DNA of 44,740 nucleotides, taken from IMG/VR virus record IMGVR_UViG_2617271072_000006, positions 1-44,740 of that record. One strand, written 5' to 3'. The notes under the pieces are model-generated. The model was not told the DNA's origin, did no database searches, and saw only the letters and a program-made list of their open reading frames with translations. The stretch is from a virus. Taxonomy: Duplodnaviria > Heunggongvirae > Uroviricota > Caudoviricetes. This document shows positions 8,817 to 43,087 of the stretch, one piece after another. Both the position numbers and the translations under genes were made by a program. The first letter of the stretch is position 1; the number at the start of each line of letters is the position of its first letter.

Positions 8817-10419
8817 TTAATTTATCTTTTCAACATTTCCATGAATCAACAAGTCGTAGGCAAGAAATAGTTTCCTATACTGGGTTTTTAAATTGTCAAC
8901 GTCGCATGCCTTGAATTGAACAAACGCTTCTTTTTTAACATAATCTTCAATCTCCTCTTTGGGGATATTTTTTATGTTCTTAATGACTATAGACAATTCT
9001 TTGTACTTTTTGAACTTTGCATCCTTTATATCTTTGATGTTGGTGTAAATTTTATTTGCATTGATTTTATCTAAGGTGATTTTATTGAGCAAGTCGTCTA
9101 GTTTTCCGTGGCGTTCAATGCGTTGATTTAGTTTTAACACATATTTAGCTGGCAAACTTAACTCTTTCAAATTACATGAGGTTATAGTTTTTGAAAATGG
9201 AAGTTGTAATGAGTTTACTGAACCTAATATGAAATCTATGGCTAATTTATTAGATATTTCATTTTTATTAAATAAGTAGTCTTCAAGATAATTTATTTCT
9301 TTAACTTGTGTGAATACATACTTTTTATCGCCTAGAGCAACAACTAAATTTTTTCCTTGTTTAACACTTTCTTCAAGTCTGTCTAAGTCAGAAGGTGAAA
9401 CCAATAGAGTATCTAAGTGCCCTTTTTCACCCTCATTAATGATAAGTGTTTTAATGGCTCTTTGATACCTTAAAACATCATAAGGTGAGAGCCCTTCATC
9501 AACAGCACTGATCTCATCATAGATCTGTTTATAGTTATCTGTTTTAACAGATGTATATGTAATTTGTAGCTGTTGATCGGTAATCTGTTTTGGTACTACT
9601 TCCTGTTCATTCTCTTTATATTCAATCAAAATTATTCTTTCAGCTGATTTTCGACCATCTTCTCTAGGTAGTTGTGAGGAAAAATCAGAAAGAAGTTTCT
9701 TTACATTCCTGTCAGTTAAAGAATATCCAAGAAAAACTATTGGATTTTTAATCATGTTAGATAGTATCTTGGCACTAATGAGTATAGATTTGTTGTCATA
9801 TTTTTCGTAATCATCTTTATTTATGATTATTGAGTGTGGATCCTTTATATCACCATGTATTTTGTATAACTCACTCCAGCCAATAGTATCTTCGAAAAAA
9901 CCATTATTTCCAATATAGAGTTTTGGAGTTATATTTTGCTCTTGAAGTAAATTTTCTATGAAAGCATCATAATTTGTAGTGATGATTATCTTGGCCTTTT
10001 TTATTAATGTTTTAAATGATGCTAATTCATCAAGATTTACATCCTTTCTGATTGTGTTATTAGAAAATCTTTGGCATATGGCGTATTTAAATGGTGAAAT
10101 ATCTTCACTAAAAACCCTCTTGGCATCTAGTCCATTTAATTTTAATTTGCCAGTCCTAAACAATAGATTGTAATCATTTTCAATTTTACTTGCTGCCTCT
10201 GTATAAATCTTATGATCGATATCATTATCACTGTTATTTTTATGTGATTCTTTTATTGTTAAAAGATAACTATAGAAATCATTTGTGGGATTTGTTATTT
10301 TCCAATACTCGTTTAATAGCTCTTCCCACGTTGGGTAGTTCTCTAAATATATTTTTGAAATGCCTGAGCCAATAAAGACTATTGGGTAATTTTTGAATTC
10401 AAAATTTTTTTTTTGACAT
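8817..10419 (-). CDS. SIR2-like (SIR2_2/ThsA-type NADase domain) protein with uncharacterised C-terminal region; N-terminus frameshifted as assembled
   Basis: ORF 8817-10163 carries IIITTNYD, YKIHG and VFLGYSLTD motifs; the same frame upstream encodes the FIGSGIS glycine loop but has no start codon; ATG at 10419 with RBS is out of frame by one base across a T10 run (10405-10414). Confidence 0.7.
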
Positions 10420-10531: not shown

Positions 10532-11223
10532 CTACCCATGTTTTCTATATGTCTGTGGCATGCTCCCAATAACTTTCCCAAATATAAATACCCGATTCAT
10601 TTCGTCTTTTTCGATCGGGTCCCACGGTGAGTAGCTCTTGTTATCAGAGATAACCAGCAGCTTATCCTTCATCATTTGCAGGCGCTTTACATGGGCTGTG
10701 TCGTCGTACAGAAACGCATAGATACCATCACCGTCGAAAGATTTAACAGTGATATCAACGAACAGAAGATCACCTGGTTCGATCGTTCCTGACATGCTGT
10801 CACCGCGTACGTTAATGATGCGGATATTTTCTGCCTTCCTGCCATCGAACATGTGACGAGCATCGTCAAACGAGTACTCAACCGAGCGTAGGACTTCTAC
10901 AAACTCACGGTTGATGACACCCGGCCCAGCACTGACTTCTATATCAAGAACGTCAATTTTGAAGTATTTGGAATGGTTGACAGCAGGCTTCCCTGATTGT
11001 TGACCGTCATTTCTCATCGGGCCTATGCCTGATGAGAGCCACTCTGTTCGAACACCCAATGCATTAGCTATTTCAACAATTTTGTTGAGCCGCGTGCGTT
11101 GCCGCTTGTCAGTCTCCAGATTGTGGGTTGAGCTACGCCAGACGCCTTTGCAAGAGCGCCTTGAGACATTCCAGATTGTTCCATCGCTAGGTTTAAGCGA
11201 TCAGCAAGAGTTTCTTTTTTCAT
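10532..11223 (-). CDS. cI-like prophage repressor (N-terminal HTH + C-terminal S24 LexA-type peptidase domain); frameshifted as assembled
   Basis: HTH ORF 11068-11259 (QGALAKASGVAQPTIWRL) and peptidase ORF 10532-11059 (GDSMSGTIEPGDLLFVD...VKRL...K) join if the T4 run at 11080-11083 were T5; likely ATG at 11223. Confidence 0.8.
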
Positions 11224-11235
11224 AAGTTTTAATTT

Positions 11236-11300
11236 ATACGCTTGCGTATTGATGGTCAAAACACGTTTTGCTATTGATTGGATTAATACGCATTGCTATT
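11236..11300. promoter_or_regulatory. Right operator/promoter region between repressor and cro-like gene
   Basis: Perfect palindrome ATACGCTTGCGTAT (11236-11249), imperfect copy (11285-11300) and TGCTATTG motifs; TATAAA -10-like element 8 nt upstream of the repressor ATG, consistent with a leaderless pRM-like transcript. Confidence 0.5.
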
Positions 11301-14049: not shown

Positions 14050-15069
14050 ATGTGTTACAGTAATGTTACAGATCGTGATCTTATGGGGCAAATTGCTACT
14101 AAACTAAATGACTATCGAAACCCTCCTCAAGGTGGCATGAGCATTGATCATGTTAATCGATGGATTAATCAATTTGAGTTAACTGATAGGCGATTTGTCT
14201 TAGAGGAAACGGACCGATTAATGGGGATTGGATACTTTTCTGAGAACGACTATCGCAGGGTTATTAGTAGTATCGCCACTGATGAGCAAAATGAAAGTTT
14301 CTTTCAAACTGCAGCGTTTCTCGATATTCAGAACCAAGGTACCAGTCAATCTGAGTTTTTGGATTTACTTCGAGAAGATTGTGTAGAAGAATTCAACGTT
14401 GTGACCAGACTTTCACAACGTCAAAGAGTTAGTTCATTCCGTGAATTTATTTACGTTGACGATGTTTTATTCTCCGGAGCTAAGGCAATCAATGATTTAA
14501 TTTGGTTTATTGAGCACTTTAAACTCCAAAATATTACAATATTGGTGTACTTTTTAGGTGGGCACACATATTCAACATGGAAGATAAAAGACCAACTTGA
14601 ACGAAGATTTGCGGGCAGAAATATTTCAGTTGGCGTTGGTGGAGGTGAGTTTGTATTTGTTGAAAATAAACTCCGAAATAGTTCGAATTCGGAGGTTTTA
14701 TGGCCAAAAGCGCAAAGTGTATCAATACCTGAATGGGCTGACGGTCAAATACATTATTTAGGAACATATCGAAACGGTTACGTCGCGAATAAAATTTTTC
14801 CTGATGAGCAGAGACGTGATCGTTTTGAAACTATTCTGACAAAAGTTGGGTTTGATATCCTTGGTCATAGTCAAAATCCCTCTGCTGTCATAAAGCCCTT
14901 AGGCTTTTCAACTTTCAATGGTGTTGGGTTTGGCGGAACTATCTTTACTTTCAGAAACTGCCCAAATAATACCCCTCTCGCGTACTGGTGGGGAACTTAT
15001 CTTCGAACAGGAAATAGAGCTCTGGATTGCTGGTATCCACTTATGAAGCGTAATGTGTATAATCGGTGA
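14050..15069 (+). CDS. Phosphoribosyltransferase-fold (type I PRTase-like) protein, function unknown
   Basis: 339-aa ORF in an AT-rich island; residues 133-147 FIYVDDVLFSGAKAI fit the PRPP-binding signature of type I PRTases; AGGA RBS; stop lies 3 nt before the NADAR ATG. Confidence 0.5.
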   Translation: MCYSNVTDRDLMGQIATKLNDYRNPPQGGMSIDHVNRWINQFELTDRRFVLEETDRLMGIGYFSENDYRRVISSIATDEQNESFFQTAAFLDIQNQGTSQSEFLDLLREDCVEEFNVVTRLSQRQRVSSFREFIYVDDVLFSGAKAINDLIWFIEHFKLQNITILVYFLGGHTYSTWKIKDQLERRFAGRNISVGVGGGEFVFVENKLRNSSNSEVLWPKAQSVSIPEWADGQIHYLGTYRNGYVANKIFPDEQRRDRFETILTKVGFDILGHSQNPSAVIKPLGFSTFNGVGFGGTIFTFRNCPNNTPLAYWWGTYLRTGNRALDCWYPLMKRNVYNR

Positions 15070-15071: not shown

Positions 15072-15682
15072 ATGAGCTATAGACTATACCTGTTTCACAA
15101 CACAGTTTCTTTCAGGAAAACCACCGAGAAATGGGGTGGTCTTTCCAACATGGCCAAAGGATATCCGCTCTTCGTTAATGGTATACCCATTCAATCGAGT
15201 GAAATTCTTTACCAAGCATGCCGATATCCAGACTATCCAGATATCCAAAGGGTTATTATTACCCAAGCCAACCCTTACGAAGCTAAACAAACCGCCAGAA
15301 CCTTCGAGGCCAAAACCCGTACTGGTTGGGAAAAAATCGAGTTTCGGTAATGAAATGGTGTGTCTGCGTTAAGCTTTGCCAGAACTGGGAATCGTTCTTC
15401 GCGCTATTGGATAGCACAGGAGATCATGACATTGTTGAGCACTCAGAGAAGGACCAATTTTGGGGGGCTAGTAAGGACTCCGAAGGTAACTTTTATGGCA
15501 TGAACGTGTTAGGTCGTATCCTTATGGATGCGAGAGATATTGCAAGAAAGAAGGGGCCTGCAGGGTTTGCTACGATACCGCCGCTACCCTTGGATAGGTT
15601 TCTTCTGCTCGGGGAGCAAATACGTGATGTCACTTTCTCTCCACCACCGATGGATTCAGGGCAAAGCTTATCGCTTTTTTAA
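15072..15682 (+). CDS. NADAR (YbiA-like N-glycosidase) domain protein; frameshifted as assembled
   Basis: ORFs 15066-15350 and 15326-15682 together align to YbiA as recalled (LSNMAKGYP...SSEILYQACRY, then WEK..VMKW...IVEHSEKDQFWGA...GMNVLGRILMDAR); frames join if the A6 run at 15331-15336 were A7. Confidence 0.75.
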
Positions 15683-16153
15683 TGTGGCTGTTGTTCCTCT
15701 CTCGGTCGTGACAGTTCTGCAACCCCGCTTTGGCGGATTTTTTATAAATTATGCAACTTATTGACTTGATACCGATATTTCAGACTTTAACATAGCAGCC
15801 AAAATCTAGGACGAAGGCGACAAAGTAAACGTTGAATTGGCTGCCATCGGCGTAGCGTTCAAAGAGTGGATGAATATGTCGGTTATAGCGGAAGCGGTGA
15901 TGCGTGAGCAGACATCGCTCTGCCCAAGGCATCCGCCCCTCGACATCTTAAGCAGGAAGGTGAAAAATGATAAGTGCAGAAGGACTGCAGCGGTTACTTA
16001 ATTTATCGGAGCCTCCATCTGATGAACTGATTGATGTTTATCTTCAATTCAGCATGATTTTTCCTAGGGTCGAACAAAGTTTTTTTTGGTGGCTTTGCTA
16101 AGGGGGAAGACAGTTTAAATTATGCTCGAACGTTACTTGACGCCGGGATAAAG

Positions 16154-17265: not shown

Positions 17266-17548
17266 TTTGAGAAAAGCAGCGCGTGGTCGGGAATGCCAGG
17301 TAAGAATCCCTGGCGTATGTAATGGCAACCCTGAAACGTCTGTACTGGCACATATCCGGCTGACTGGATTGTGCGGCACCGGTACGAAACCGCCAGACCT
17401 GATTGCAACCATTGCATGTTCTGCCTGCCACGACGAAATCGACCGCCGCACGCATTTTGTTGACGCTGGATATGCAAAAGAATGCGCGCTGGAAGGTATG
17501 GCGAGAACACAGGTTATCTGGCTGAAAGAGGGGGTTATTAAGGCGTGA
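17258..17548 (+). CDS. ybcO: YbcO-like DUF1364 protein (putative nuclease)
   Basis: Start ATG 17258 with AAGGAGG RBS; [34 protein letters not shown]...CSACHDEID Cys/His motif. Confidence 0.75.
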
Positions 17549-17907
17549 ATACCTACAGCATCACATTACCCTGGCCTCCGAGCAATAATCGCTATTACCG
17601 CCATAATCGCGGGCGCACGCACGTCAGCGCAGAGGGGCAGGCATACCGCGATAACGTCGCCCGAATCATTAAAAACGCAATGCTGGATATCGGCCTGGCT
17701 ATGCCTGTGAAAATCCGCATTGAGTGCCACATGCCGGATCGCCGTCGCCGTGACCTGGATAATCTGCAAAAAGCCGCTTTTGACGCACTCACTAAAGCAG
17801 GTTTCTGGCTGGATGATGCTCAGGTCGTTGATTACCGCGTTGTGAAGATGCCTGTTACCAAAGGTGGGAGGCTGGAGCTGACCATCACTGAACTGGGAGA
17901 TGAATGA
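17545..17907 (+). CDS. rusA: RusA Holliday-junction resolvase
   Basis: 120-aa [45 protein letters not shown]... matching E. coli RusA as recalled. Confidence 0.95.
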
Positions 17908-18044
17908 TGTTTGAGTCTTATATGGCAGAACGTCTTCGCCGCCGCTGGGTGCGCCTGCGCTTATATCGTTTTCCTGGTTCTGTTTTGACCGATTACCGGA
18001 TACTGAAGAATTACGCCAAAACACTGAAAGGAGCTGCCGCATGA
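17904..18044 (+). CDS. ylcG: YlcG-like small protein
   Basis: 46-aa [44 protein letters not shown]..., start overlaps rusA stop, stop overlaps the next ATG. Confidence 0.7.
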
Positions 18045-18730
18045 ATACCCAATATTTACAGTATGTCCGCGAGCAACTCATGGTGGCTACCGCTGATTTG
18101 TGCGGAGCAACGAAAGGCCAGCTTGAAGCCTGGCTGGAGCATGCACAATTTGATACTGGTACATACAAACGAAAGAAGCGACGCATTCTGGATGAGGTAA
18201 CTGGCAAGATTATTATGCTGGATAATCCGCCGATTTCCGGTAAGCAGTCGTACGCAAAAGGTTCATCTGTCGCCCTGATCAGTCCGGTCGAGTTTTCAAC
18301 CTCTTCATGGCGCCGCGCTGTTCTGTCTCTCGATGAGCATCAGAAAGCATGGTTGCTGTGGAGTTACAGTGAAAATATTCGCTGGGAGCATCAGGTTGCC
18401 ATAACGCAGTGGGCATGGAGCGAGTTTAAGACTCTGTTGGGTACCAGAAAAATTGCAGGTAAGACACTGGAACGCCTGAAGAAGTTGATCTGGCTGGCGG
18501 CACAGGATGTGAAGAGCGAACTGGCAGGGCGTGAGGCTTATGAATACCAGGAACTGGCGTCACTGGTGGGAGTGACATCAAAAAACTGGTCTGAGACATT
18601 CACTGAACGCTGGGTTGCAATGAAGCACATTTTTCTACAGCTTGATAGCGAAGCTTTATTGCTTCTAACGAGAACACGTTCAAAACAAAAGGCGACATTT
18701 TCACAGCAAAATATTGCAAAACTGGATTAA
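18041..18730 (+). CDS. Putative late antiterminator (Q-like), assigned by position
   Basis: 229-aa ORF directly after rusA-ylcG and before the late leader and lysis genes; not lambda Q by sequence. Confidence 0.5.
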   Translation: MNTQYLQYVREQLMVATADLCGATKGQLEAWLEHAQFDTGTYKRKKRRILDEVTGKIIMLDNPPISGKQSYAKGSSVALISPVEFSTSSWRRAVLSLDEHQKAWLLWSYSENIRWEHQVAITQWAWSEFKTLLGTRKIAGKTLERLKKLIWLAAQDVKSELAGREAYEYQELASLVGVTSKNWSETFTERWVAMKHIFLQLDSEALLLLTRTRSKQKATFSQQNIAKLD

Positions 18731-18911
18731 AAAGCATATATTTCATATAAATCTGATATTTTGCCAATGTTGTACGCACTGGCAGTAATCCAAATTCAAG
18801 CTCGAGGTTTAAAGCCTTGGGCTTTTCTGTTTCTGGGCGGTGAGTATCCTTCCAACCTACCCCAGCCAGGGTGTCTTCAGCTGTTGAGTTGATATTGCTT
18901 AACCCTCTGTT

Positions 18912-18936
18912 GCCAGCTACATGCTGGCTTTTTTAT
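18912..18936 (+). terminator. Rho-independent terminator (tR'-like) in the late leader
   Basis: GCCAGC-TACAT-GCTGGC hairpin followed by TTTTTTAT, between the Q-like gene and the holin. Confidence 0.6.
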
Positions 18937-19039
18937 TCCAGGCTTGCGGGGAGCATCAACTCCGTGCTTTGTCGTTAAATTACCCCGTGAGCCTGATTTC
19001 TGACATTTAACGTCCCGGCCTTTTGTCGGCGGCGAAACA

Positions 19040-19357
19040 TTGGCTATTCATATGCACGAAAAAGAGAGCCTTGCCGGAGCGTTCTGGCTCGTTTTGCTGA
19101 TCATCGCAGGTTGGGGCGGTCTGGTCCGCTACCTGATAGATGTGAAGCAGAGTAAAGCAACGTGGAGTTGGATAAATGCTCTGGCTCAGATAGTTGTATC
19201 AGGATTCACCGGTGTTATTGGTGGCCTGATCAGCATCGAAAGTGGATTCAGTATTTACATGATTCTCGCGACAGCGGGGATTAGTGGTGCGATGGGTTCG
19301 GTTGCACTGACGTACTTCTGGGAACGACTGACAGGGGTGAAAAATGCAAAATCTTAA
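19040..19357 (+). CDS. Putative holin
   Basis: 105-aa ORF with three predicted hydrophobic segments, MAIHM N-terminus and charged C-terminus, immediately upstream of the endolysin. Confidence 0.7.
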   Translation: MAIHMHEKESLAGAFWLVLLIIAGWGGLVRYLIDVKQSKATWSWINALAQIVVSGFTGVIGGLISIESGFSIYMILATAGISGAMGSVALTYFWERLTGVKNAKS

Positions 19358-19820
19358 TCCTCAGCGTAAAGCTTTCCTCGATATGCTGGCGTGGTCAGAG
19401 GGAACTGATAACGGACGTCAGAAAACCAGAAATCATGGTTATGACGTCATTGTAGGCGGAGAGCTATTTACTGATTACTCCGATCACCCTCGCAAACTTG
19501 TCACGCTAAACCCAAAACTCAAATCAACAGCAGCCGGGCGCTACCAGCTTCTTTCCCGTTGGTGGGATTCCTATCGTAAGCAGCTTGGCCTGAAAGACTT
19601 CTCTCCGAAAAGCCAAGACGCTGTGGCATTGCAGCAGATTAAAGAGCGTGGCGCTTTACCGATGATTGATCGCGGTGATATCCGTCAGGCTATCGATCGT
19701 TGCAGCAATATCTGGGCGTCGTTACCTGGTGCAGGTTACGGTCAGTATGAACATAAAATCAGTGACCTGATTTCCCGGTTTAAAGAGGCTGGTGGGGTGG
19801 TAAATGAAGTTGAGCTATAA
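19344..19820 (+). CDS. R: Endolysin, lambda R-type lytic transglycosylase
   Basis: 158-aa ORF near-identical to lambda R as recalled (NPQRKAFLDMLAWSEGTDNGRQKTRNHGYDVIVGGELFTDYSDHPRKL...). Confidence 0.95.
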   Translation: MQNLNPQRKAFLDMLAWSEGTDNGRQKTRNHGYDVIVGGELFTDYSDHPRKLVTLNPKLKSTAAGRYQLLSRWWDSYRKQLGLKDFSPKSQDAVALQQIKERGALPMIDRGDIRQAIDRCSNIWASLPGAGYGQYEHKISDLISRFKEAGGVVNEVEL

Positions 19821-20196
19821 GCTGGTTATCGCTGCATTCTTCTTTATTGTCATTGGTTCTTTCATCTGGTCTGCCAACCACTACTACAGCAAATATCAGC
19901 ACGAAAAGAAACGTGCTGATGAGGCTGTACAAAATGCCAAATCGGCAACTGCCATTACCAATAACGTCCTGCAATCACTGCAAATCGTCAATACAGTACT
20001 GGAGGCTAACCAGCATGCAAAACAGCAGATCGCACTGGGGTCACAGAGAACCCAGGAAGATATCAAAATGGCTGTTGCGGATGATGATTGTGCTTCACGT
20101 GCTGTGCCTGCTGCCGCTGCTGACCGGTTGCGGAAGTACGCGGACAGTTTACGTGAGCATTCCGGTGGCACCACTGCCACCCAGCCTGACTTCTGA
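19804..20196 (+). CDS. Rz: Rz-like i-spanin
   Basis: 130-aa ORF with N-terminal transmembrane segment and coiled-coil-like periplasmic region, overlapping R end. Confidence 0.7.
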   Translation: MKLSYKLVIAAFFFIVIGSFIWSANHYYSKYQHEKKRADEAVQNAKSATAITNNVLQSLQIVNTVLEANQHAKQQIALGSQRTQEDIKMAVADDDCASRAVPAAAADRLRKYADSLREHSGGTTATQPDF

Positions 20197-20338
20197 TACT
20201 CCTGTACCGTTTATACCTAATCCGCTGACGTATGGTGCCAGTCTGGAGCTGAATGTGAGTCTGATGGGGGCGCTGGGAATGTGTAACAGGGATAAAGAAG
20301 ATATTAGAACGATTGAGCAATCACGATCCTCGCAATAG
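20081..20338 (+). CDS. Rz1: Rz1-like o-spanin lipoprotein
   Basis: +1-frame ORF starting inside Rz: MMIVLHVLCLLPLLTGC lipobox, proline-rich mature region; extends past the Rz stop. Confidence 0.7.
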   Translation: MMIVLHVLCLLPLLTGCGSTRTVYVSIPVAPLPPSLTSDTPVPFIPNPLTYGASLELNVSLMGALGMCNRDKEDIRTIEQSRSSQ

Positions 20339-20361
20339 TGGGGTTTTTTAACAACTGAGGA

Positions 20362-20565
20362 ATGAGCATGACAGTAGTTCTTACAGCAAAACAGATTGAA
20401 GACCTGTCAGCCTTCGCAAAAGAAGATGGCCAGCCCAAGTACACCATCACCACCGGGACAATCCCGAAATTCGAAGCAGAAGATGGCGAGATTATCCCTG
20501 AATACACAGGACTGATCGCCTACTCAGAGTCACTTGAGCGCGGTGTGTTGCAACTCGACGACTAG
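20362..20565 (+). CDS. Hypothetical small protein downstream of lysis genes
   Basis: 67-aa ORF, no recognisable motif. Confidence 0.4.
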   Translation: MSMTVVLTAKQIEDLSAFAKEDGQPKYTITTGTIPKFEAEDGEIIPEYTGLIAYSESLERGVLQLDD

Positions 20566-20633
20566 CGGCATTACAGCAGTCATTCACTGAGTGTATGAGA
20601 TATAGCAAATTTGTATAGTATCGGAAGCGAGCA

Positions 20634-20669
20634 TTTGACATGGCTAACAATCTCAAAAGCCATGTCAAA
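20634..20669. terminator. Strong hairpin between convergent genes
   Basis: Perfect 11-bp stem TTGACATGGCT / AGCCATGTCAA with 12-nt loop between the + strand 67-aa ORF and the - strand moron. Confidence 0.5.
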
Positions 20670-20676
20670 GCTAATC

Positions 20677-21027
20677 TTATTTATTGAAGATCTGAAATAG
20701 AAGGCTACATATCGTAGCAATATTTGCCCCATAAGATAGGTATTTTGTAAACCCTATTCCATCAAATACAGTTAGCTGCTCTTGTTCAGTAGTAGCTTTG
20801 CTACTTACCAGCTCTTCATATGCCTGCTTTAGTTGTTCCAGAGGCGTTTCAGCTCTAATTCCTGCTGCATGAAGAGCCTGGATATTATCTTTATAGTTGA
20901 CTCCGTGTCCTTCATTTTCAGAGATATCAGTACCTATTATGACTAAATCTAAAGGATTACCGGCCTCGACTCTAATGCCATCACCGCCATTACCTTTAAT
21001 ACGGCCACCAATTAATGTTAATGTCAT
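20677..21027 (-). CDS. Hypothetical protein (AT-rich moron between lysis and packaging modules)
   Basis: 116-aa ORF with good RBS (AGGAAA, 8-nt spacer), own AT-rich upstream region, opposite strand to flanking late genes; possible beta-helix-like repeats (GGDGIRVEAG...IIGTDISENEG). Confidence 0.5.
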   Translation of the reverse strand: MTLTLIGGRIKGNGGDGIRVEAGNPLDLVIIGTDISENEGHGVNYKDNIQALHAAGIRAETPLEQLKQAYEELVSSKATTEQEQLTVFDGIGFTKYLSYGANIATICSLLFQIFNK

Positions 21028-21285
21028 TAATACTTTCCTTTATCAGATGAAAAATAAATTCTATTTTACATCACTAGCCACGTAAAAATATAAAGAATAT
21101 TTCCAGAATTGTTGTGGCTCACATTTTCTATAACTAAATACTATATCGCTGTCGTCTTTGAGTAAATGCTACTTAATCTGTCTACAAGCATTTTTATAGT
21201 CATCACAATGGGCGGATCCATCGTAATGGCTTAACATGAGCACTACTATGCTCCCTGCAAAAAACACATAACAGAAGGGCGGACA

Positions 21286-21636
21286 ATGCCACCACGCACA
21301 CCAAAGGCTTGCAGAGCAAGAGGCTGCCGCAACACGACAACCGATTCATCAGGCTACTGCGAGCTACACAAAAGCGAAGGCTGGAAGCAATACAAGCCAG
21401 GTCAGTCCCGTCATCAGCGCGGTTATGGTTCGAAGTGGGATGTTATCCGCGTGCGTGTGCTGAAGCGTGACAAAGGCCTGTGTCAGTTATGTCTGCGTGC
21501 TGGTGTGGTGCGTGAGGCGAAAACCGTTGACCACATCATCGCTAAAGCGCATGGCGGCACTGATGCCGACTGCAATCTGCAGAGTTTGTGCTGGCCGTGT
21601 CATAAGGCGAAGACGGCCCGTGAACGGCTGAAGTAA
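21286..21636 (+). CDS. HNH endonuclease (packaging-associated)
   Basis: 116-aa ORF with Cys/His-rich HNH motifs (CQLCLRAG...VDHIIAKAHGGTDADCNLQSLCWPCHKAK), directly upstream of the terminase genes. Confidence 0.85.
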   Translation: MPPRTPKACRARGCRNTTTDSSGYCELHKSEGWKQYKPGQSRHQRGYGSKWDVIRVRVLKRDKGLCQLCLRAGVVREAKTVDHIIAKAHGGTDADCNLQSLCWPCHKAKTARERLK

Positions 21637-21662
21637 GAACCAGTTCCCACTGCCAGAGGGGA

Positions 21663-21723
21663 GGGGCGGGTCAAATCCCTGTGACCTGACGTCTTCCGGA
21701 CTGCCCGCCCCATCCGTTTTTTT
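21663..21723 (+). terminator. Large GC-rich inverted repeat followed by T7 tract between HNH and terS (terminator or cos-proximal structure)
   Basis: GGGGCGGG (21663-21670) pairs with CCCGCCCC (21704-21711); TTTTTTT at 21717-21723. Confidence 0.4.
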
Positions 21724-21762: not shown

Positions 21763-22257
21763 ATGGCTGGAACGGCGGGGCGTTCCGGGCGTCGCCCCAA
21801 GCCAACGGCGCGCAAGGCGCTGGCCGGAAACCCCGGCAAGCGAGCCCTGAACAAAGATGAACCTGTTTTTACGCCCATCAAAGGTGTTGAGCCACCGGAG
21901 TGGTTCGCTGAAGAAGATCTCCCTCTCGCCACGATCATGTGGCAACTGACAACCAAAGAACTCTGCGGTCAGGGCCTGCTGTGCGTGACTGACTTGGCGG
22001 TACTTGAGCGGTGGTGCGTGGCCTACGAGTTCTGGCGACGTGCCGTGAAAAATATTGCCAGACAGGGCAACACCATCACCGGTGCAATGGGTGGCATGGT
22101 CAAAAATCCGGAGCTGACCGCCAAGAAAGAACAGGAGTCCGAGATGAGCAGCACGGGGGCAATGCTCGGACTCGACCCCAGCAGCCGCCAGCGTCTGATT
22201 GGCCTGGCGGGGCAGAAGAAAGCCACTAACCCGTTTCTGAAAATCATCGAATCATGA
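21763..22257 (+). CDS. Terminase small subunit
   Basis: ORF 21754-22257 (likely ATG 21763 after AGGAG), positioned between HNH and the large terminase subunit with ATGA overlap. Confidence 0.8.
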
Positions 22258-23986
22258 GCCGGAAATCTTACCCCAACGTAAATGCTGCCAATCAGTATGC
22301 CCGTGATGTCGTGCGCGGAAAGATTGTGGCCTGCCAGTTTGTGATTCAGGCCTGCCAGCGCCATCTTGATGACCTGATGGTGGAAAAAGTAAGTCGTTTC
22401 GTTACCGCTTCGACAAGGACCTGGCTGAACGGGCCGCGAAATTTATTCAGCTGTTGCCACACACCAAGGGGGAGTGGGCATTCAAGAGGATGCCCATCAC
22501 GCTGGAACCGTGGCAGCTCTTTGTGATCTGCTGTGCGTTTGGCTGGGTCAATAAAGGCTCCCGGCTGCGCCGCTTCAGGGAGGTGTATACCGAAATCCCC
22601 CGTAAGAACGGCAAATCGGCAATCTCTGCCGGTGTTGCCCTGTATTGTTTTGCCTGTGATAACGAGTTTGGCGCGGAAGTGTATTCCGGTGCCACGACAG
22701 AGAAACAGGCGTGGGAAGTCTTTCGCCCGGCGCGACTGATGTGTAAACGCACACCCATGCTGACGGAAGCGTTCGGGATTGAGGTTAACGCCTCAAACAT
22801 GAACCGTCCGGAGGATGGCGCGCGGTTTGAACCGCTGATCGGTAACCCCGGTGATGGTTCATCACCCCACTGTGCCGTGGTGGATGAATATCACGAGCAC
22901 GCCACCGATGCGCTTTATACCACGATGCTTACCGGGATGGGCGCGCGACGTCAGCCACTGATGTGGGCCATCACCACCGCCGGGTACAACATTGAGGGGC
23001 CGTGCTACGACAAGCGGCGGGAAGTTATCGAGATGCTCAACGGTTCGGTACCCAACGATGAACTGTTCGGGATCATCTATACCGTTGACGAAGGCGATGA
23101 CTGGACCGACCCGCAGGTGCTGGAAAAAGCTAACCCGAATATTGGCGTGTCGGTTTATCGCGAATTTTTGTTAAGTCAGCAGCAGCGTGCGAAAAATAAC
23201 GCCCGTCTGGCAAACGTCTTTAAAACAAAACACCTCAATATCTGGGTGTCGGCGCGTTCGGCGTATTTCAACCTGGTGAGCTGGCAGAGCTGCGAGGATA
23301 AATCACTGACCCTTGAGCAGTTCGAGGGGCAACCGTGCATTCTGGCCTTTGACCTGGCGCGTAAGCTGGATATGAACAGCATGGCGCGACTTTATACCCG
23401 CGAGATTGACGGTAAAACGCATTACTACAGTGTGGCTCCGCGCTTCTGGGTACCGTATGACACGGTGTACAGCGTCGAGAAAAATGAAGATCGCCGGACA
23501 GCCGAACGCTTTCAGAAATGGGTGGAAATGGGCGTTCTGACCGTTACCGATGGTGCGGAGGTGGATTATCGCTACATCCTCGAGGAGGCCAAAGCGGCGA
23601 ACAAAATCAGCCCGGTCAGTGAGTCACCCATCGACCCCTTCGGGGCGACCGGGTTGTCACATGACCTTGCTGATGAAGACCTGAATCCCGTCACTATCAT
23701 TCAGAACTACACCAACATGTCCGACCCGATGAAAGAGCTGGAAGCGGCAATTGAATCGGGGCGCTTTCATCATGATGGCAATCCCATCATGACCTGGTGT
23801 ATCGGCAATGTGGTCGGCAAAACCATTCCGGGTAACGATGATGTGGTGAAACCCGTCAAAGAGCAGGCGGAAAACAAAATTGACGGTGCAGTTGCGCTGA
23901 TTATGGCGGTTGGCAGAGCCATGCTGTATGAGAAAGAAGACACGCTGTCTGACCACATTGAGTCCTATGGGATCCGCTCGCTTTAA
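22254..23986 (+). CDS. Terminase large subunit; frameshifted as assembled
   Basis: N-terminal ORF 22254-22526 and main ORF 22454-23986 join in frame if one base is restored near 22397-22401; reading of the junction ([19 protein letters not shown]) is my reconstruction. Confidence 0.85.
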
Positions 23987-26064: not shown

Positions 26065-27267
26065 ATGGCGGTTGATATTAAAGATGTCGAACAGGTCGCG
26101 CAGGAGCTGCAGCAGAAGTTTGACGACTTCAAAGCAAAGAACGACAAGCGCGTGGATGCGATTGAGCAGGAAAAAGGCAAGCTTGCCGGGCAGGTGGAAA
26201 CCCTGAACGGGAAACTCAGCGAGCTGGAAAATCTCAAAAGCGACCTTGAAAAAGAGCTGCTTGAGCTGAAACGTCCGGCAGGTGGAGCGCAAAATAAACT
26301 GGCCACCGAGCATAAAGAGGCGTTTGTGGGCTTCCTGCGTAAAGGCCGTGAAGACGGTCTGCGCGATCTGGAGCGTAAGGCATTGCAGGTGGGTACCGAT
26401 GAAGACGGTGCTACGCCGTGCCGGAAGAACTGGATCGCAACATTCTTAACCTGCTGAAAGATGAAGTGGTGATGCGTCAGGAACCACGGTGATCACCGTT
26501 GGCGGTTCCGACTACAAAAACTGGTGAATCTGGGCGGTACGGCTTCCGGATGGGTGGGGGAAACGGATACGCGATCCCAGACTGCCACCTCCAGACTGGA
26601 GCTGATTGAACCTCTCATGGGGGAAATCTACGGCAACCCGCAGGCTACCCAGAAAATGCTGGACGATGCCTTCTTCAACGTGGAGGCCTGGATCAACAGC
26701 GAGCTGGCAACCGAATTTGCCGAACAGGAAGAAATTGCCTTTACCTCAGGCAATGGCACCAAGAAGCCGAAAGGGTTCCTGGCGTATGAATCCACGGATG
26801 AAACCGACAAGGTCCGGGCGTTCGGCAAACTTCAGCATATTGTATCCGGCGAAGCGACCGCGGTGACCGCAGACGCCATTATCAAACTGATTTACACGCT
26901 GCGTAAGGCACACCGCACTGGCGCGAAGTTCATGATGAACAACAACAGCCTGTTTGCCATACGTCTGCTGAAAGACAGCGAGGGTAACTATCTGTGGCGT
27001 CCGGGGCTGGAGCTGGGGCAGCCGTCCTCTCTGGCGGGTTACGGTATCGCTGAAAACGAACAGATGCCGGATATCGCCGCTGATGCGAAAGCCATTGCAT
27101 TTGGTAACTTCAAACGGGGTTACACCATCGTTGACCGTATCGGCACCCGCATTCTGCGTGACCCGTACACCAATAAACCGTTTGTCGGTTTTTATACCAC
27201 CAAACGCACCGGCGGCATGCTGGTCGATTCGCAGGCCATCAAACTGCTGAAGATTGCAGTGGCGTAA
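26065..27267 (+). CDS. Major capsid protein (HK97 fold) with N-terminal coiled-coil delta domain; three frameshifts as assembled
   Basis: ORF 26065-26457 (coiled coil) and 26524-27267 (capsid body) are connected through three single-base deletions at ~26410, ~26482 and 26516-26520. Confidence 0.8.
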
Positions 27268-33652: not shown

Positions 33653-35029
33653 ATGGATTTATCCTCATTTCCCACCCGACCTTCATTACTTTCGTCGTCT
33701 TCAGGCTGGCGTGACAGGCTTCAGGACGCGTCATTTCGCGGCGTGCCGTTTAAGGTTGAAGAAGAAAGTGCGGGAACCGGTCGCCGTGTGGAAACACATG
33801 AATACCCGAACCGCGACAAGCCCTATACCGAAGATCTGGGAAAAGTCACTTTCCGCCCGTCCATCACAGCTTATGTGGTGGGAGATGACTGCTTTGACCA
33901 GCGCGATCGCCTGATTGAAGCGCTGAATAAACCCGGTCCCGGCACGCTTGTCCACCCGACATATGGTGAGCTGAAAGTCTGTGTTGACGGGGAAGTTCGG
34001 GTCAGCACATCGAAAAGTGAAGGGCGTATTGTCCGCTTTGACCTGAAGTTTGTCGAAGCAGGAGAACTCTCTTACCCCACATCAGGTGCGGCGACGGCGC
34101 AGACGCTGATGTCATCCTGTTCTGCACTGGATGACTGCATTAGTGACAGCTTCAGCGGTTTCAGTATCGATGGTGTGGCGGATTTCGTGCAGAACGACGT
34201 TATCGGTAATGCCAGCATAATGCTGGGGTATGTTTCTGATGCGATGAAAGTGGTGGATTCTGCCGTATCGGATGCCGCCAGGCTGTTGCAGGGGGATATC
34301 TCGGTACTTCTGCCGCCGCCATCGTCAGGCAAAAATTTCGTTGAGCAGGTGCAGAAAATGTGGCGTACCGGGAAACGCCTTTATGGTAACGCCAGCGACC
34401 TGGTTACCATGATCAAAACGCTTTCCGGTGTCAGCCTCGGCAGCGATCTGCAACCGCGCGGCGTCTGGAAAACGGACAGTAAAACCACCGCCACGGCGAC
34501 GCAGCAGCGTAACGTGGTTGCCAGCACCCTTCGTACGACCGCAATCAGCGAAGTGGCGTATGCCGTCACCCGATTGCCTGCGCCAACAACTTCCGCGGTG
34601 ATGCAGAATTCCGCAGTGGGGCAGGCAACAACACCCGCGCAGAGCACTGGCTGGCCTTCCGTCACGCATCCGGCACTGAACAATGCACCGGCGGTGAAAA
34701 ACACGGTTGACCTGCCGACGTGGGAAGAACTGACTGACATTCGCGACACACTGAATACGGCAATTGATAAGGAGTTGTCCCGTACAACCAGTGATGCGCT
34801 GTTTCTGGCGCTGCGCCGGGTGAAAGCAGATCTGAATGCGGATATCAACACGCGCCTTGAACAGTCTGCACGGATCATTCAGCGCACACCGGATGAGGTT
34901 TTACCCGCGCTGGTGCTGGCGGCGACCTGGTTTGATAACGCGGCGCGTGACGCGGACATTATCCGGCGTAATGCCATTACGCATCCCGGCTTTGTGCCGG
35001 TGATCCCTCTGAAGGTGCCAGTGCAATGA
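33653..35029 (+). CDS. Mu gpN-like DNA circularisation / tail protein
   Basis: 458-aa ORF with DRLQDASFRGVPFKVEEE N-terminal motif; position between tape measure and baseplate hub. Confidence 0.7.
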   Translation: MDLSSFPTRPSLLSSSSGWRDRLQDASFRGVPFKVEEESAGTGRRVETHEYPNRDKPYTEDLGKVTFRPSITAYVVGDDCFDQRDRLIEALNKPGPGTLVHPTYGELKVCVDGEVRVSTSKSEGRIVRFDLKFVEAGELSYPTSGAATAQTLMSSCSALDDCISDSFSGFSIDGVADFVQNDVIGNASIMLGYVSDAMKVVDSAVSDAARLLQGDISVLLPPPSSGKNFVEQVQKMWRTGKRLYGNASDLVTMIKTLSGVSLGSDLQPRGVWKTDSKTTATATQQRNVVASTLRTTAISEVAYAVTRLPAPTTSAVMQNSAVGQATTPAQSTGWPSVTHPALNNAPAVKNTVDLPTWEELTDIRDTLNTAIDKELSRTTSDALFLALRRVKADLNADINTRLEQSARIIQRTPDEVLPALVLAATWFDNAARDADIIRRNAITHPGFVPVIPLKVPVQ

Positions 35030-36105
35030 ACGACAATGTCACGCTACGGGTAAATGGCCGGGAGTGGAATGGCTGGACATCGGTGCGCATCGGTGCCGGT
35101 ATTGAACGGCTGGCGCGGGATTTCAGTGTGGAGATCACCCGCCAGTGGCCGGGAGATGAGGGTATCACCACGCTTCAGCCGCGCATTAAAAACGGTTCAA
35201 AAGTGGAAGTGCTGATTGGTGATGAGCTGGTGATCACCGGCTGGGTGGAGGCGACGCCCGTTCGTTACGATGCCCGTTCGGTCAGCACCGGTATTGCCGG
35301 ACGTAGTCTGACGGCTGACCTGATTGACTGTGCAGCCGAACCGACACAGTTTAACGGACGCTCGCTGGTGCAGATTGCGCAGGCGCTTGCTGCGCCTTTC
35401 GGCATTGAGGTGGTGAACAGCGGTGCGCCGTCGGGTGTTATTCCTGATGTTCAGCCTGATCACGGTGAAACGGTGATTGAGGTAATCAACAAAATACTCG
35501 GTCAGCAGCAGGCACTGGCTTACGACGACCCGCACGGCAGGCTGGTGATTGGCGGTATTGGCTCAACGCGGGCACATACTGCGCTGGTACTCGGGGAAAA
35601 CATCCTTTCCTGTGATACGGAGAAGAGTATCCGGGAGCGGTTTTCTGTTTACCAGGTGGCGGGGCAGCGTGCCGGAAACGACGATGATTTCGGTGAGGCC
35701 ACCACCACCGCGCTGCGGGCCCGCACAGAGGACGCATTTATTGCCCGTTACCGTCCGATGTATATCAGGCAGACAGGGCAGGCTACGGGGGCAGGCTGTA
35801 TTGCCCGTGCGGACTTTGAAGCCAGACAACGGGCGGCGCGGACGGATGAAACCACCTATGTGGTGCAGGGCTGGCGACAGGGTAACGGTACGCTGTGGCA
35901 GCCCAACCAGCGGGTGATTGTCTTTGATCCGGTCTGTGGTTTCGACAATACCGAACTGCTTGTTTCGGAAGTCACGTTTACTCAGGACCAGAACGGCACC
36001 CTGACGGAAATCCGTGTCGGCCCACCTGATGCTTATCTGCCTGAACCCGAAGCCCCCGGCGCGCGAAAAAAGAAAAAAGCCAGAGTACAGGAGGACCCGT
36101 TCTGA
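35026..36105 (+). CDS. Mu gpP-like baseplate hub protein
   Basis: 359-aa ORF; conserved order N-P-gp45-gp46-gp47-gp48 of Mu-type tails. Confidence 0.7.
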   Translation: MNDNVTLRVNGREWNGWTSVRIGAGIERLARDFSVEITRQWPGDEGITTLQPRIKNGSKVEVLIGDELVITGWVEATPVRYDARSVSTGIAGRSLTADLIDCAAEPTQFNGRSLVQIAQALAAPFGIEVVNSGAPSGVIPDVQPDHGETVIEVINKILGQQQALAYDDPHGRLVIGGIGSTRAHTALVLGENILSCDTEKSIRERFSVYQVAGQRAGNDDDFGEATTTALRARTEDAFIARYRPMYIRQTGQATGAGCIARADFEARQRAARTDETTYVVQGWRQGNGTLWQPNQRVIVFDPVCGFDNTELLVSEVTFTQDQNGTLTEIRVGPPDAYLPEPEAPGARKKKKARVQEDPF

Positions 36106-36653
36106 TGAGGACGATTGAAGCCATGCAGCGACAACTCCTCGGCCTGATTGGGCGGGCCGTGGTGAAAAGCATCAGTGCCGCCACGAAATGTCAGACCGTG
36201 GATGTGTCTCTGATTGCCGGTGAACCCAAAGCCGGGGTTGAACATCTTGAACCCTACGGTTTTACCGCAAGGGCAAACAGCGGTGCGGAAGCGGTGGTGT
36301 TGTTTCCGGATGGCGACCGTTCTCATGCGGTGGTTGTTACGGTGTCGGACCGGCGCTACCGCCTGAAAGGGCTGCAGACGGGTGAGGTGGCTGTCTATGA
36401 CGATCAGGGGCAGTCCGTGACGCTGACCCGGGAGGGGATCGTGGTGGACGGTGCAGGTAAAACGATCACGTTTCGCAATGCGCCTAAGGCTCGTTTTGAA
36501 ATGGACCTGGAAGTGACCGGACAGGTGAAAGACCTGTGCGACTCCAGCGGCACCACCATGTCAGCGATGCGGCTTGCCTATAACGGGCATCGTCACAGAG
36601 AGAACGGTCAGGGCAGTAACACCGACAAACCTGATAAAGCGATGGAGGCATGA
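36105..36653 (+). CDS. Baseplate assembly/spike protein (Mu gp45 / gpV-like)
   Basis: 182-aa ORF following the hub gene. Confidence 0.7.
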   Translation: MRTIEAMQRQLLGLIGRAVVKSISAATKCQTVDVSLIAGEPKAGVEHLEPYGFTARANSGAEAVVLFPDGDRSHAVVVTVSDRRYRLKGLQTGEVAVYDDQGQSVTLTREGIVVDGAGKTITFRNAPKARFEMDLEVTGQVKDLCDSSGTTMSAMRLAYNGHRHRENGQGSNTDKPDKAMEA

Positions 36654-37078
36654 TGGAACTGTGGCTGACGGTGAACGGTAAACGCACCTGCGCTAGCGCA
36701 CCGCTGGATCCGCTGACCCGTGCCGTGGTGATTTCCCTGTTCACCTGGCGGCGGGCTGAACCTGATGACAATGCCGACGTCCCGATGGGATGGTGGGGGG
36801 ATACCTGGCCTGCGGTACAGAATGACCGTTACGGCTCCCGACTGTGGCTGCTTCAGCGCAGCAAACTGACCAATCAGCTGGTGCAGACGGTAAGGGGGTA
36901 TATCCGCGAATGCCTGCAATGGATGATTGATGACGGCGTGGTGTCCCGTATTGATCTGGATATCCGCCGCACCGGGATTAATGAACTGGGTAACAGTATC
37001 ACTCTCTGGCGTCGTGACGGACCGGTAATGATTTCTTTTGATGATCTGTGGAGTGCGATAACGCATGGCGGACAGTGA
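36650..37078 (+). CDS. Mu gp46-like baseplate protein
   Basis: 142-aa ORF in conserved position. Confidence 0.7.
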   Translation: MMELWLTVNGKRTCASAPLDPLTRAVVISLFTWRRAEPDDNADVPMGWWGDTWPAVQNDRYGSRLWLLQRSKLTNQLVQTVRGYIRECLQWMIDDGVVSRIDLDIRRTGINELGNSITLWRRDGPVMISFDDLWSAITHGGQ

Positions 37079-38123
37079 ATTTCAGCGCCCGACGCTGGCA
37101 GAAAATATCAGTATGCTCCGTAACGATTTATTCGCCAGGCTGGACGTCAGCGACACGCTCCGGCGCATGGATGAAGACGTGCGGGCAAAGGTGTATGCGG
37201 CGGCGCTGCATACGGTTTACGGTTACATCGATTATCTGGCAATGAACATGCTGCCTGACCTGTGCGATGAGTCCTGGCTGGCGCGACATGCTGCGATGAA
37301 ACGGTGTCCGCGCAAGGGGGCCACGGCTGCCAGCGGGTATATGCGCTGGGAAGGTGTCAGCGATGGCCTGAAAGTGACCGCCGGGAGCGTGATTCAGCGC
37401 GATGACCTGGTTCAGTACACGGCAACTGCCGATGCAACCAGCTCCGGTGGTGTCCTGCGCGTGCCGATCGCCTGCTCAAGTGCAGGCGCGGTCGGTAACG
37501 CTGACGACGGTACGGCATTAATCCTGGTCACGCCGGTGAATGGTCTGCCGTCTTCCGGTGTGGCTGACACCCTGACAGGCGGATTTGATACTGAAGAGCT
37601 GGAAACGTGGCGCGCCCGCGTCATTGAGCGGTATTACTGGACGCCTCAGGGCGGGGCTGACGGGGACTATGTCGTCTGGGCTAAAGAAGTGCCCGGCATT
37701 ACCCGCGCATGGACATACCGACACTGGATGGGAACGGGGACTGTCGGTGTGATGATTGCCAGCAGTGACCTGATTAATCCCATTCCGGAAGAGTCAACGG
37801 AAACGGCGGCAAGACAACATATCGGGCCATTGGCCCCGGTGGCAGGCTCTGATTTGTATGTATTCAGGCCGGTGGCGCATAAAGTGGATTTTCATATCCG
37901 CGTGACGCCGGACACACCGGAAATACGGGCTGCCATCACCGCCGAGTTGCGTTCGTTCCTGCTGCGTGATGGTTATCCGCAGGGAGAACTGAAGGTGTCA
38001 CGTATCAGTGAAGCGATTTCCGGTGCGAACGGGGAATACAGCCATCAGTTGCTTGCACCGGCAGACAATATCTCCATTGCAAAAAATGAGCTGGCAGTTC
38101 TGGGGACGATTTCATGGACGTGA
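37065..38123 (+). CDS. Baseplate J-like protein (Mu gp47-like)
   Basis: 352-aa ORF in conserved position. Confidence 0.75.
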
Positions 38124-38698
38124 CAAACGATGATTATATCCGTCTGTTGTCGGCACTGTTGCCGCCCGGTCCGGCGTGGTCAGTCAGCGATCCGGCGATT
38201 GCCGGTGCGGCACCGTCATTAACCCGCGTTCATCAGCGTGCGGATGCCCTGATGCGGGAGCTGGATCCGCGCACCACCACTGAACTGATAAACCGCTGGG
38301 AGCGTCTGTGCGGTCTGCCGGATGAATGTATTCCCGCAGGGACACAGACCCTTCGCCAGCGTCAGCAACGGCTGGATGCGAAGGTTAATCTGGCGGGCGG
38401 CATCAATGAGGATTTTTACCTTGCACAGCTTGCTGCCCTGGGCAGACCAGACGCCACTATCACGCGATACGATAAAAGCACGTTCACCTGCTCATCGGCC
38501 TGTACTGACGCAGTGAATGCGCTGGAATGGCGGTATTACTGGCAGGTCAACATGCCAGCTGCCACCAACACCACCTGGATGACATGTGGCGATCCCTGTG
38601 ATTCCGCACTGCGTATCTGGGGCGACACCGTTGTCGAGTGTGTGCTTAACAAACTCTGCCCGTCGCATACCTACGTAATTTTTAAATATCCGGAGTAA
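38114..38698 (+). CDS. Mu gp48-like tail protein
   Basis: 194-aa ORF between baseplate J and tail fibre genes. Confidence 0.7.
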
Positions 38699-38701
38699 TC
38701 C

Positions 38702-39457
38702 ATGCATCGTATAGACACGAAAACCGCGCAGAAGGATAAGTTCGGCGCGGGTAAGAACGGTTTTACCCGTGGTAACCCCCAGACCGGCACACCTGCCACC
38801 GATCTGGATGATGACTACTTTGACATGTTGCAGGAGGAGCTTTGCGGCGTGGTGGAGGCATCCGGTGCCAGCCTGGAGAAGGGGCGGCACGACCAGCTGC
38901 TTACCGCGCTTAGTGCGCTACTGTTAAGCCGCAAAAATCCGTTTGGCGATATCAAATCGGACGGCACGGTGAAAACGGCTCTCGAAAACCTTGGTTTGGG
39001 AGAAGGCTCTGCATTACCTGTTGGTGTGCCTGTTCCGTGGCCCTCAGCCACTCCGCCAACAGGCTGGCTAAAATGCAACGGAGCAGCTTTTTCTGCTGAA
39101 GAATACCCGGAACTGGCAAAGGCTTACCCGACAAATAAATTGCCTGATTTACGCGGTGAATTTATTCGTGGCTGGGATGACGGACGTGGAGTGGATGCCG
39201 GGCGACAATTATTATCTTCACAGGGGGATGCAATAAGAAATATTGAGGGATTCGCAGATGGCGGGATCGGCATGTCTTTTGATGCAATCAGAGGGGCTTT
39301 TTACGATGCAGGAACACGATCAGCGAGAATGCCGAATAACACAACTGATATAGGCAAAACCGATGACCTTGGATTCGACGCCTCTCGTGTCGTGCCAACA
39401 GCTAATGAAAACCGTCCACGTAACATCGCCTTTAATTATATTGTGAGGGCTGCATAA
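38702..39457 (+). CDS. Tail fibre protein, constant N-terminal part plus variable C-terminal tip 1 (Mu S / P2 H-type)
   Basis: 251-aa ORF; first 102 aa identical to the inverted copy at 40452-41036; tip contains PWP...[23 protein letters not shown]...[17 protein letters not shown]. Confidence 0.85.
38981..39004 (+). other. Din-invertase-type crossover site (gix/hix/cix-like) at the constant/variable junction of tail fibre gene 1
   Basis: CTCGAAAACC-TT-GGTTTGGGAGAA: dyad AAAACC..GGTTT with TTCTC-type outer half-sites, resembling hix/gix consensus as recalled. Confidence 0.6.
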
Positions 39458-40451: not shown

Positions 40452-41036
40452 TCAATACCCCACCGCTATAATGTCCACATTAAATCCTCCGGGACCTGCC
40501 TGCCAGATGCTGGCCCCTGTTAATGATTTTGTTTGATGAACAACCGCCACATTTGCTGGCGATTGTGTTTCAGTTGTTACAGTACCGATATCATTCCAGT
40601 TAATTGAGATGGAATAGTTCGTTGTTGTAAACGACCGGGGGAAAGTTATGTGTCTTACATTGGTGCCAATAGGAAATCCAAGATAAACACGCTGAATTAT
40701 CATTCCTCCAGGTAACATAACCCAGTTAGCACCTTCTCCCAAACCAAGGTTTTCGAGAGCCGTTTTCACCGTGCCGTCCGATTTGATATCGCCAAACGGA
40801 TTTTTGCGGCTTAACAGTAGCGCACTAAGCGCGGTAAGCAGCTGGTCGTGCCGCCCCTTCTCCAGGCTGGCACCGGATGCCTCCACCACGCCACAAAGCT
40901 CTTCCTGCAACATGTCAAAGTAGTCATCATCCAGATCGGTGGCAGGTGTGCCGGTCTGGGGGTTACCACGGGTAAAACCGTTCTTACCCGCGCCGAACTT
41001 ATCCTTCTGCGCGGTTTTCGTGTCTATACGATGCAT
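40452..41036 (-). CDS. Tail fibre protein of the inverted module, same constant N-terminus with different C-terminal tip 2
   Basis: 194-aa ORF; residues 1-102 identical to fibre 1, then unrelated C-terminus. Confidence 0.85.
40734..40759 (-). other. Second Din-type crossover site, inverted relative to site 1
   Basis: TTCTCCCAAACC-AA-GGTTTTCGAGAG, exact reverse complement of the site at 38981-39004, at the constant/variable junction of fibre gene 2. Confidence 0.6.
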
Positions 41037-41039
41037 GGA

Positions 41040-42673: not shown

Positions 42674-43087
42674 GCGTTATCGCACTCCACAGATCATCAA
42701 AAGAAATCATTACCGGTCCGTCACGACGCCAGAGAGTGATACTGTTACCCAGTTCATTAATCCCGGTGCGGCGAATATCCAGATCAATACGGGACACCAC
42801 GCCGTCATCAATCATCCATTGCAGGCATTCGCGGATATACCCCCTTACCGTCTGCACCAGCTGATTGGTCAGTTTGCTGCGCTGAAGCAGCCACAGTCGG
42901 GAGCCGTAACGGTCATTCTGTACCGCAGGCAGGTATCCCCCCACCATCCCATCGGGACGTCGGCGTTGTCATCAGGCTCCGCCCGCCGCCAGGTAAACAG
43001 GGAAATCACCACGGCGCGGGTCAGCGGATCCAGCGGTGCGCTGGCGCAGGTGCGTTTACCGTTCACCGTCAGCCACAGTTCCATCAT
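42660..43087 (-). CDS. Mu gp46-like protein, second copy; frameshifted as assembled
   Basis: ORFs 42869-43087 and 42660-42947 correspond to the two halves of gp46; one G missing relative to copy 1 near 42925-42935. Confidence 0.65.

Follow-up and report, generated by a model that had tools for sequence, protein, structure and literature searches.

The window, by which we mean the whole 44,740-nt stretch of DNA analysed here, carries a mosaic lambdoid/SfV-like prophage that adjoins ybhC and whose head is HK97-like and whose tail is contractile. The prophage has a complete lysis cassette, comprising a holin, an endolysin, an i-spanin (the Rz equivalent) and an o-spanin (the Rz1 or LysC equivalent), and the coordinates of these genes and of the shorter features within them are collected in Table 1. 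The pair that closes the cassette was assessed by the criteria for two-component spanins (Summer 2007; Kongari 2018), which concern gene location, i-spanin topology, the o-spanin lipobox, periplasmic cysteines and the class of overlap. With respect to location, the pair adjoins the endolysin and holin genes with overlapping gene ends, the holin and endolysin sharing 14 nt and the endolysin and Rz sharing 17 nt.

Table 1. Lysis-cassette genes and associated features, in coordinates of the window.
Feature	Coordinates	Strand	Details
Holin, LydA / holin superfamily III type	19052..19357	+	First gene of the lysis cassette
Endolysin, lytic transglycosylase type	19344..19820	+	Lambda R-like
i-spanin (Rz equivalent), 130 aa	19804..20196	+	ATG 19804, TGA 20194-20196
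GGAGG, Shine-Dalgarno-like motif	20001..20005	+	9 nt upstream of the in-frame ATG 20015
o-spanin, longest plausible extent, 107-aa precursor	20015..20338	+	ATG 20015, TAG 20336-20338
Lipobox LLTGC	20117..20131	+	Cys codon 20129-20131
Part of the o-spanin gene past the Rz stop, 142 nt	20197..20338	+	Conserved C-terminal half
Weak terminator-like hairpin with T6	20328..20349	+	Overlaps the o-spanin stop codon; consensus match only

The holin matches Pfam PF16083 at 77.6 bits and the PHROG 785 holin family (E 5.5e-40), and its start at 19052 coincides with the holin start in the PGAP annotation of an identical E. coli record. The endolysin matches PHROG 90 endolysin (E 7e-64) and is 89% identical to lambda R by BLASTP (141/158, E 3e-111). 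On these profile and pairwise matches, the two proteins probably constitute a canonical holin-endolysin system. A scan of the lysis proteins against NCBIfam returned no meaningful match for any of them, while Rfam at its gathering threshold and ARAGORN gave no matches over the whole window. The promoter and terminator scan yielded consensus-level matches only, with the hairpin at 20328-20343 being weak.

Between Q and the holin gene, E. coli OkiPb01694, a close relative in the early region, carries an opposite-strand DUF3800 gene (L019 14191-14994), in place of which the window has about 235 nt of unrelated sequence (18772-19007) with several terminator-like hairpins that include 18798-18824 and 18912-18928; this segment presumably represents the late leader (pR'/tR'). 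Between the spanins and the genes for an HNH endonuclease and the terminase small subunit lie two further ORFs, namely a 67-aa plus-strand ORF at 20362-20565 that matches PHROG 9518 of unknown function (E 3.6e-37) and a 116-aa opposite-strand ORF at 20677-21027 that is called hypothetical in the annotation of the identical E. coli record.

The i-spanin matches the Rz-like spanin family PHROG 214 (E 4e-47). Its score against Pfam DUF2570 (PF10828), 25.5 bits, falls 1.1 bits below the gathering cut-off of 26.6, whereas the 83%-identical SfV homologue scores 28.0 and passes; in identical E. coli loci the protein corresponding to window 19804..20196 is named 'DUF2570 family protein' by PGAP. An N-terminal transmembrane helix spans residues 7-23, with a Kyte-Doolittle maximum of 2.48 over a 17-residue span, and is followed by a largely alpha-helical periplasmic domain. 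An AlphaFold2 (AF2) model consists of one helix from residue 3 to residue 119 with a pLDDT of 81.6, a result that counts as weak evidence because the prediction was made from the single sequence without an alignment. From this organization we infer an inner-membrane protein of type II topology. Its single cysteine, C96, is invariant in the 16 loci compared (see below).

Assignment of the o-spanin is carried by its match to Pfam LysC (PF23793), which reaches 62.2 bits against a cut-off of 27 (E 4.5e-17) and covers profile positions 2-67 of 69; three controls, P2 LysC, Mu gp23.1 and SfV Rz1, all pass the same threshold. The protein also matches PHROG 456 'Rz-like spanin' with an E value of 3.4e-27. 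The mature lipoprotein would comprise 69 aa, with 8 prolines among the first 35 residues and one further cysteine beyond that of the lipobox. All 16 loci retain both the lipobox cysteine and this second cysteine (precursor residue 68), so that Rz C96 and the second Rz1 cysteine are available for putative homotypic disulfides. The 142 nt past the Rz stop encode the conserved C-terminal half of the protein (…LTYGASLELNVSL…CNRDK…IR.IE…). An Asp at position +2 of a lipoprotein confers Lol avoidance, and its absence predicts sorting to the outer membrane. The residue that follows the o-spanin lipobox cysteine is Gly and not Asp, and the protein is predicted to be sorted to the outer membrane.

The start codon of the o-spanin is annotated inconsistently across the family, with PGAP and the curated phage records at variance. 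In the identical E. coli record, PGAP annotates 'lysC, Rz1-like lysis system protein LysC' with boundaries that correspond to window 20084..20338, and in other genomes it starts the gene at the equivalent of 20081; these tandem ATGs at 20081/20084 give precursors of 85 and 84 aa, respectively. The SfV, SfIV and curated Mulock records instead begin at the ATG equivalent to 20015. This ATG is kept in 10/10 close relatives together with a GGAGG or AGAGG motif, and both candidate starts are in fact conserved in all ten, though the Rz frame constrains their sequence as well. Translation from 20081 would yield a short form that is atypical in having no Lys or Arg ahead of its hydrophobic core. A start at 20015 would supply a 22-residue basic n-region (MQNSRSHWGHREPRKISKWLLR) coded wholly within Rz, and the resulting signal peptide of 39 residues would be unusually long for a lipoprotein. 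Judged on sequence features of this kind, the chances are evenly divided as to whether translation begins at ATG 20015, with a 39-residue signal peptide and a 182-nt overlap, rather than at the PGAP start of 20084; both starts could also be used. The mature lipoprotein is the same from either start, and the choice would therefore touch only the kinetics of expression and export and the PGAP start calls.

The preliminary description of this DNA had noted a lipoprotein ORF with the lipobox LLTGC that starts within the Rz-like ORF in the +1 frame and ends 142 nt past its stop, and both the coordinates and the frames are confirmed here. Rz1 lies in the +1 frame relative to Rz, as (20081-19804) mod 3 = 1, and overlaps it by 116 nt when counted from ATG 20081 or by 182 nt from ATG 20015. 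The overlapped class is defined by an o-spanin gene whose start lies within the i-spanin gene, in a different frame, and whose end lies beyond the i-spanin stop, and the earlier assignment to an overlapped and not an embedded spanin pair is borne out by the Pfam LysC and PHROG matches and by the equal layout of the relatives. We extracted the pair mechanically from 16 loci: the window, four E. coli prophages, vB_EcoM-689R6, SfV, SfIV, SfII, Salmonella 118970_sal3, Klebsiella Mulock, Enterobacter CobraSix, APSE-5, Erwinia Midgardsormr38, Vibrio Pm34 and Mu. In every one of these loci, which represent 8 host genera, Rz1 is read in the +1 frame; its gene shares 104-182 nt with Rz and continues for 133-202 nt beyond the Rz stop. 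Comparison with annotated spanin pairs, which had been proposed as a check, shows the same architecture in SfII, SfIV and Mulock, where the genes are annotated as i- and o-spanin, and in SfV, where they are annotated as Rz and Rz1. Conservation of the o-spanin reaches as far as Mu and the APSE, Erwinia and Vibrio phages, in which identity falls to about 36-47%.

Against this background, two features that had appeared peculiar take on a different meaning. The length of Rz, 130 aa, was reported correctly but is no oddity, as Rz measures 125-138 aa across the 16 loci, the 159 aa of CobraSix being due to an upstream ATG. The contrast with the embedded Rz1 of lambda likewise holds, but the layout is not unusual. 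Among 528 two-component spanins, Kongari et al. (2018) distinguished three architectures, with 182 embedded, 228 overlapped and 118 separated systems, which makes the overlapped class, with P2 lysB/lysC as its paradigm, the commonest (PMC6139136). Table 3 of that study places (SfIV, SfV), (Mu, D108) and (APSE-1, APSE-2) among the i-spanin families of overlapped type, and the o-spanin family of Mu is classed as overlapped as well (PMC6139136); the relatives recovered by our searches are those in these overlapped families. Of 5426 complete E. coli genomes, 654 contain the pair, 363 of these with a match that spans 80% or more of it. The pair is thus already catalogued, already annotated and very common, and its layout is ordinary for the family.

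The position of the spanin genes within the prophage reflects a mosaic history. OkiPb01694 has the holin and R in common with the window but continues with a lambda-type rzpD, and its similarity to the window stops at 19756; the SfV-type phages, on the other hand, align from 19358 to about 20320. A mosaic junction is accordingly seen at 19756-19800, at the 3' end of R, beyond which the window carries overlapped spanins of SfV/Mu type. The loss of OkiPb01694 similarity at 19756 therefore indicates that recombination at the 3' end of R replaced the spanin module, and this exchange explains the presence of a lambda-like R beside a non-lambda spanin pair as ordinary phage mosaicism.

Other parts of the window show both additional genes and irregularities. 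As judged from a 98.6%-identical alignment to an annotated relative, a SIR2-family gene lies on the minus strand at ~8817-10418 between kil and the repressor gene, a plus-strand phosphoribosyltransferase-like gene follows replication gene P at ~14050-15069 and is labelled 'anti-phage' in the annotation of another relative, and a NADAR-family gene comes next at ~15072-15683 (+); these three genes are probably defence cargo borne by the prophage. An inverted repeat of roughly 4 kb and 97-98% identity joins 34996-39006 to 40732-44740, so that a second copy of the baseplate and tail-fibre-proximal region faces the first. Its arms are 1725 nt apart, with tail-fibre and tail-fibre-assembly genes between them, and the right arm, which passes the end of the window, lacks one base at each of two positions, 42931 and 43679, when compared with QEC11-421. 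The repeat could be a foldback introduced by assembly, or it could represent two related prophage tail modules that were joined at the invertible fibre segment. When the window is set against its closest relatives, single-base indels are seen at 10405, 11080, 15331, 16080, 22384, 25689, 26410-26516, 27291, 29512 and other positions, most of them in or beside short runs of the same base. The ORFs that appear split or shifted are those for the cI-like repressor (10532..11059 and 11068..11259), the start of SIR2, the NADAR-like gene, the prohead protease, the terminase large subunit (22254..22526 and 22454..23986), the major capsid protein (26065..26457 and 26524..27267) and the N-terminus of the sheath. 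Either an error-prone assembly, given that the pattern fits long-read homopolymer errors, or a decaying prophage would account for these indels, and the lysis cassette is unaffected.

The abundance of such indels bears directly on how the spanin pair is to be read. The preliminary description had raised the possibility of a hidden frameshift within 19804-20338, a worry that was reasonable because homopolymer indels break other genes in the window, and to which the greater length of lambda Rz (153 aa) lends some further weight. In that event, a sequencing or assembly indel would have truncated Rz, and the true layout would be lambda-like, with Rz1 embedded in a longer Rz. The local evidence is set firmly against this explanation. 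Over 19000-20400, the window matches two independent complete E. coli chromosomes, QEC11-421 and OW968111, at 100% identity and without a gap, and the comparison with QEC11-421 has zero gaps over 17459-21713. Past the Rz stop there are 6 more stops in the Rz frame and many in the third frame, and therefore no single indel can carry Rz across Rz1. The Rz TGA occupies a common alignment column in 9/10 close relatives, and a 10-sequence DNA alignment has, from 19804 to 20329, a sole gap of 3 nt that is in-frame, with the 3' end beyond being variable. Within the pair, only one homopolymer reaches 5 bases or more (G5 at 20266), and homology in the Rz1 frame continues past it. From the same 10-sequence alignment we derived pairwise divergence separately for codon positions 1, 2 and 3 of Rz; it is 0.127, 0.076 and 0.191 in the Rz-only segment, with its maximum at position 3, and a nearly flat 0.218, 0.168 and 0.147 in the overlap. 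In the Rz1-only segment the values are 0.553, 0.246 and 0.225, the maximum now falling at Rz position 1, which is codon position 3 of Rz1. At the Rz stop, the substitution signal thus passes from the frame of Rz to that of Rz1, as expected. As far as the comparative data allow, an indel appears refuted, and we regard a frameshift at Rz/Rz1 as effectively excluded and an embedded layout concealed by one as vanishingly improbable. The same excess of third-position substitutions in the Rz1 frame past the Rz stop weighs against the idea that the +1 ORF is open by chance and its lipobox accidental, with Rz the sole real gene. The omission of the o-spanin from the public annotations of vB_EcoM-689R6, Salmonella 118970_sal3 and E. 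coli Br_178 would fit a spurious ORF, but missed o-spanins are a known annotation problem, with 196 of 528 unidentified (PMC6139136). A chance ORF is also ruled out by the Pfam LysC and PHROG 456 matches and by conservation to distant homologues with invariant cysteines, and the Mu homologue gp23.1 has been proven genetically (PMC9239132), leaving this reading scarcely credible.

A further possibility is that the spanin genes, though intact, are relics of a defective, non-inducible prophage and have no role in lysis. Comparison with close relatives shows frameshifts that affect the genes for the repressor, the terminase large subunit, the prohead protease, the major capsid protein and the sheath as well as the start of SIR2, and these point in this direction, as does the second, inverted copy of the baseplate module, and if the indels are real the cassette may indeed reside in a defective prophage. 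However, nearly all of the indels are single-base changes in or beside short same-base runs, which is the signature of sequencing error and not of decay, and the lysis cassette is intact throughout, with a sequence identical to the one in other genomes. We therefore consider a relic unlikely, if clearly less so than either of the explanations discussed above; it concerns, moreover, the state of the prophage and not the identity of the genes.

Taken together, these data identify the pair, with a probability of roughly 95%, as a two-component spanin of the overlapped SfV/Mu family, with which the holin-endolysin-spanin cassette of a lambdoid/SfV-like E. coli prophage ends. The overlap of the two genes compacts the genome, is fixed in the family and is no sequencing error. 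By the lambda and Mu paradigms, the i-spanin would be anchored in the inner membrane as a type II protein through its N-terminal transmembrane helix and extend a long helical domain into the periplasm, while the o-spanin, a small Pro-rich lipoprotein, would be cleaved and lipidated at the Cys of LLTGC and reside in the outer membrane. Following the same paradigms, the two proteins would bind through their C-terminal periplasmic parts and could form covalent homodimers through their conserved cysteines, Rz C96 and the second Cys of Rz1, in a complex that crosses the periplasm through the peptidoglycan meshwork. Upon removal of the peptidoglycan by the endolysin, the spanins would collapse, the inner and outer membranes would fuse, and lysis would be done. 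For the proposed role in outer-membrane disruption, experimental support comes by analogy from a single homologue, Mu gp23.1. The significance of the locus extends little beyond correct annotation: an overlapped spanin layout should not be 'corrected' as a frameshift, and lambdoid prophages exchange spanin modules at the 3' end of a conserved R gene.

Comparison with known systems places the pair within this family. Lambda shares with the window the function class, the +1 frame relation and the position of the pair after a nearly identical R endolysin, but lambda Rz1 (60 aa) lies wholly inside Rz, whereas Rz1 of the window runs 142 nt past it. Neither window protein matches the lambda families PF03245 (Rz) and PF06085 (Rz1) at E <= 0.1, for which the lambda Rz and Rz1 controls score 183 and 72 bits, and membership of the lambda families or of the embedded class is rejected on both counts. 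P2 has nearly the geometry of the window, with lysC in the +1 frame, overlapping lysB by 146 nt and ending 145 nt past its stop, and P2 LysC and the window o-spanin both pass Pfam LysC (64.9 and 62.2 bits, respectively). Pairwise BLASTP of P2 LysB and LysC against the window proteins is not significant (E 0.28 and 44), and P2 LysB does not match the DUF2570 profile; direct homology to LysB/LysC is thus unsupported pairwise, and the common Pfam LysC membership of the o-spanins is the only link. The closest correspondence is with SfV, SfIV and SfII, whose i-spanins are 82-85% and o-spanins 59-74% identical to those of the window and which share an Rz of 130 aa, the +1 frame, the 116-nt overlap counted from the tandem ATGs and a lambda-R-like endolysin upstream. 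Differences are found in the C-terminal tail of the o-spanin, which differs in sequence and also in length, with an extension past the Rz stop of 157-160 nt in these phages compared to 142 nt in the window, and in the upstream holin, which is of class I in SfII and LydA-type in the window. Mu is more distant, with gp23 related to the i-spanin (28% identity, E 1e-9, DUF2570-like) and gp23.1 47% identical to the o-spanin by tblastn and likewise a Pfam LysC member, yet the overlapped +1 architecture is shared, with overlap and extension of 140/202 nt compared to 116/142 nt in the window. Mu accomplishes lysis with a SAR endolysin and a releasin and without a holin (PMC9239132), in contrast to the LydA-type holin gene and lambda-R-like endolysin of the window. 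Nevertheless, it is in Mu that gp23 and gp23.1 were established experimentally as spanin subunits by Chamblee et al. (2022), an amber mutation in gp23.1 producing the spherical-cell spanin phenotype and lambda RzRz1 complementing it (PMC9239132).
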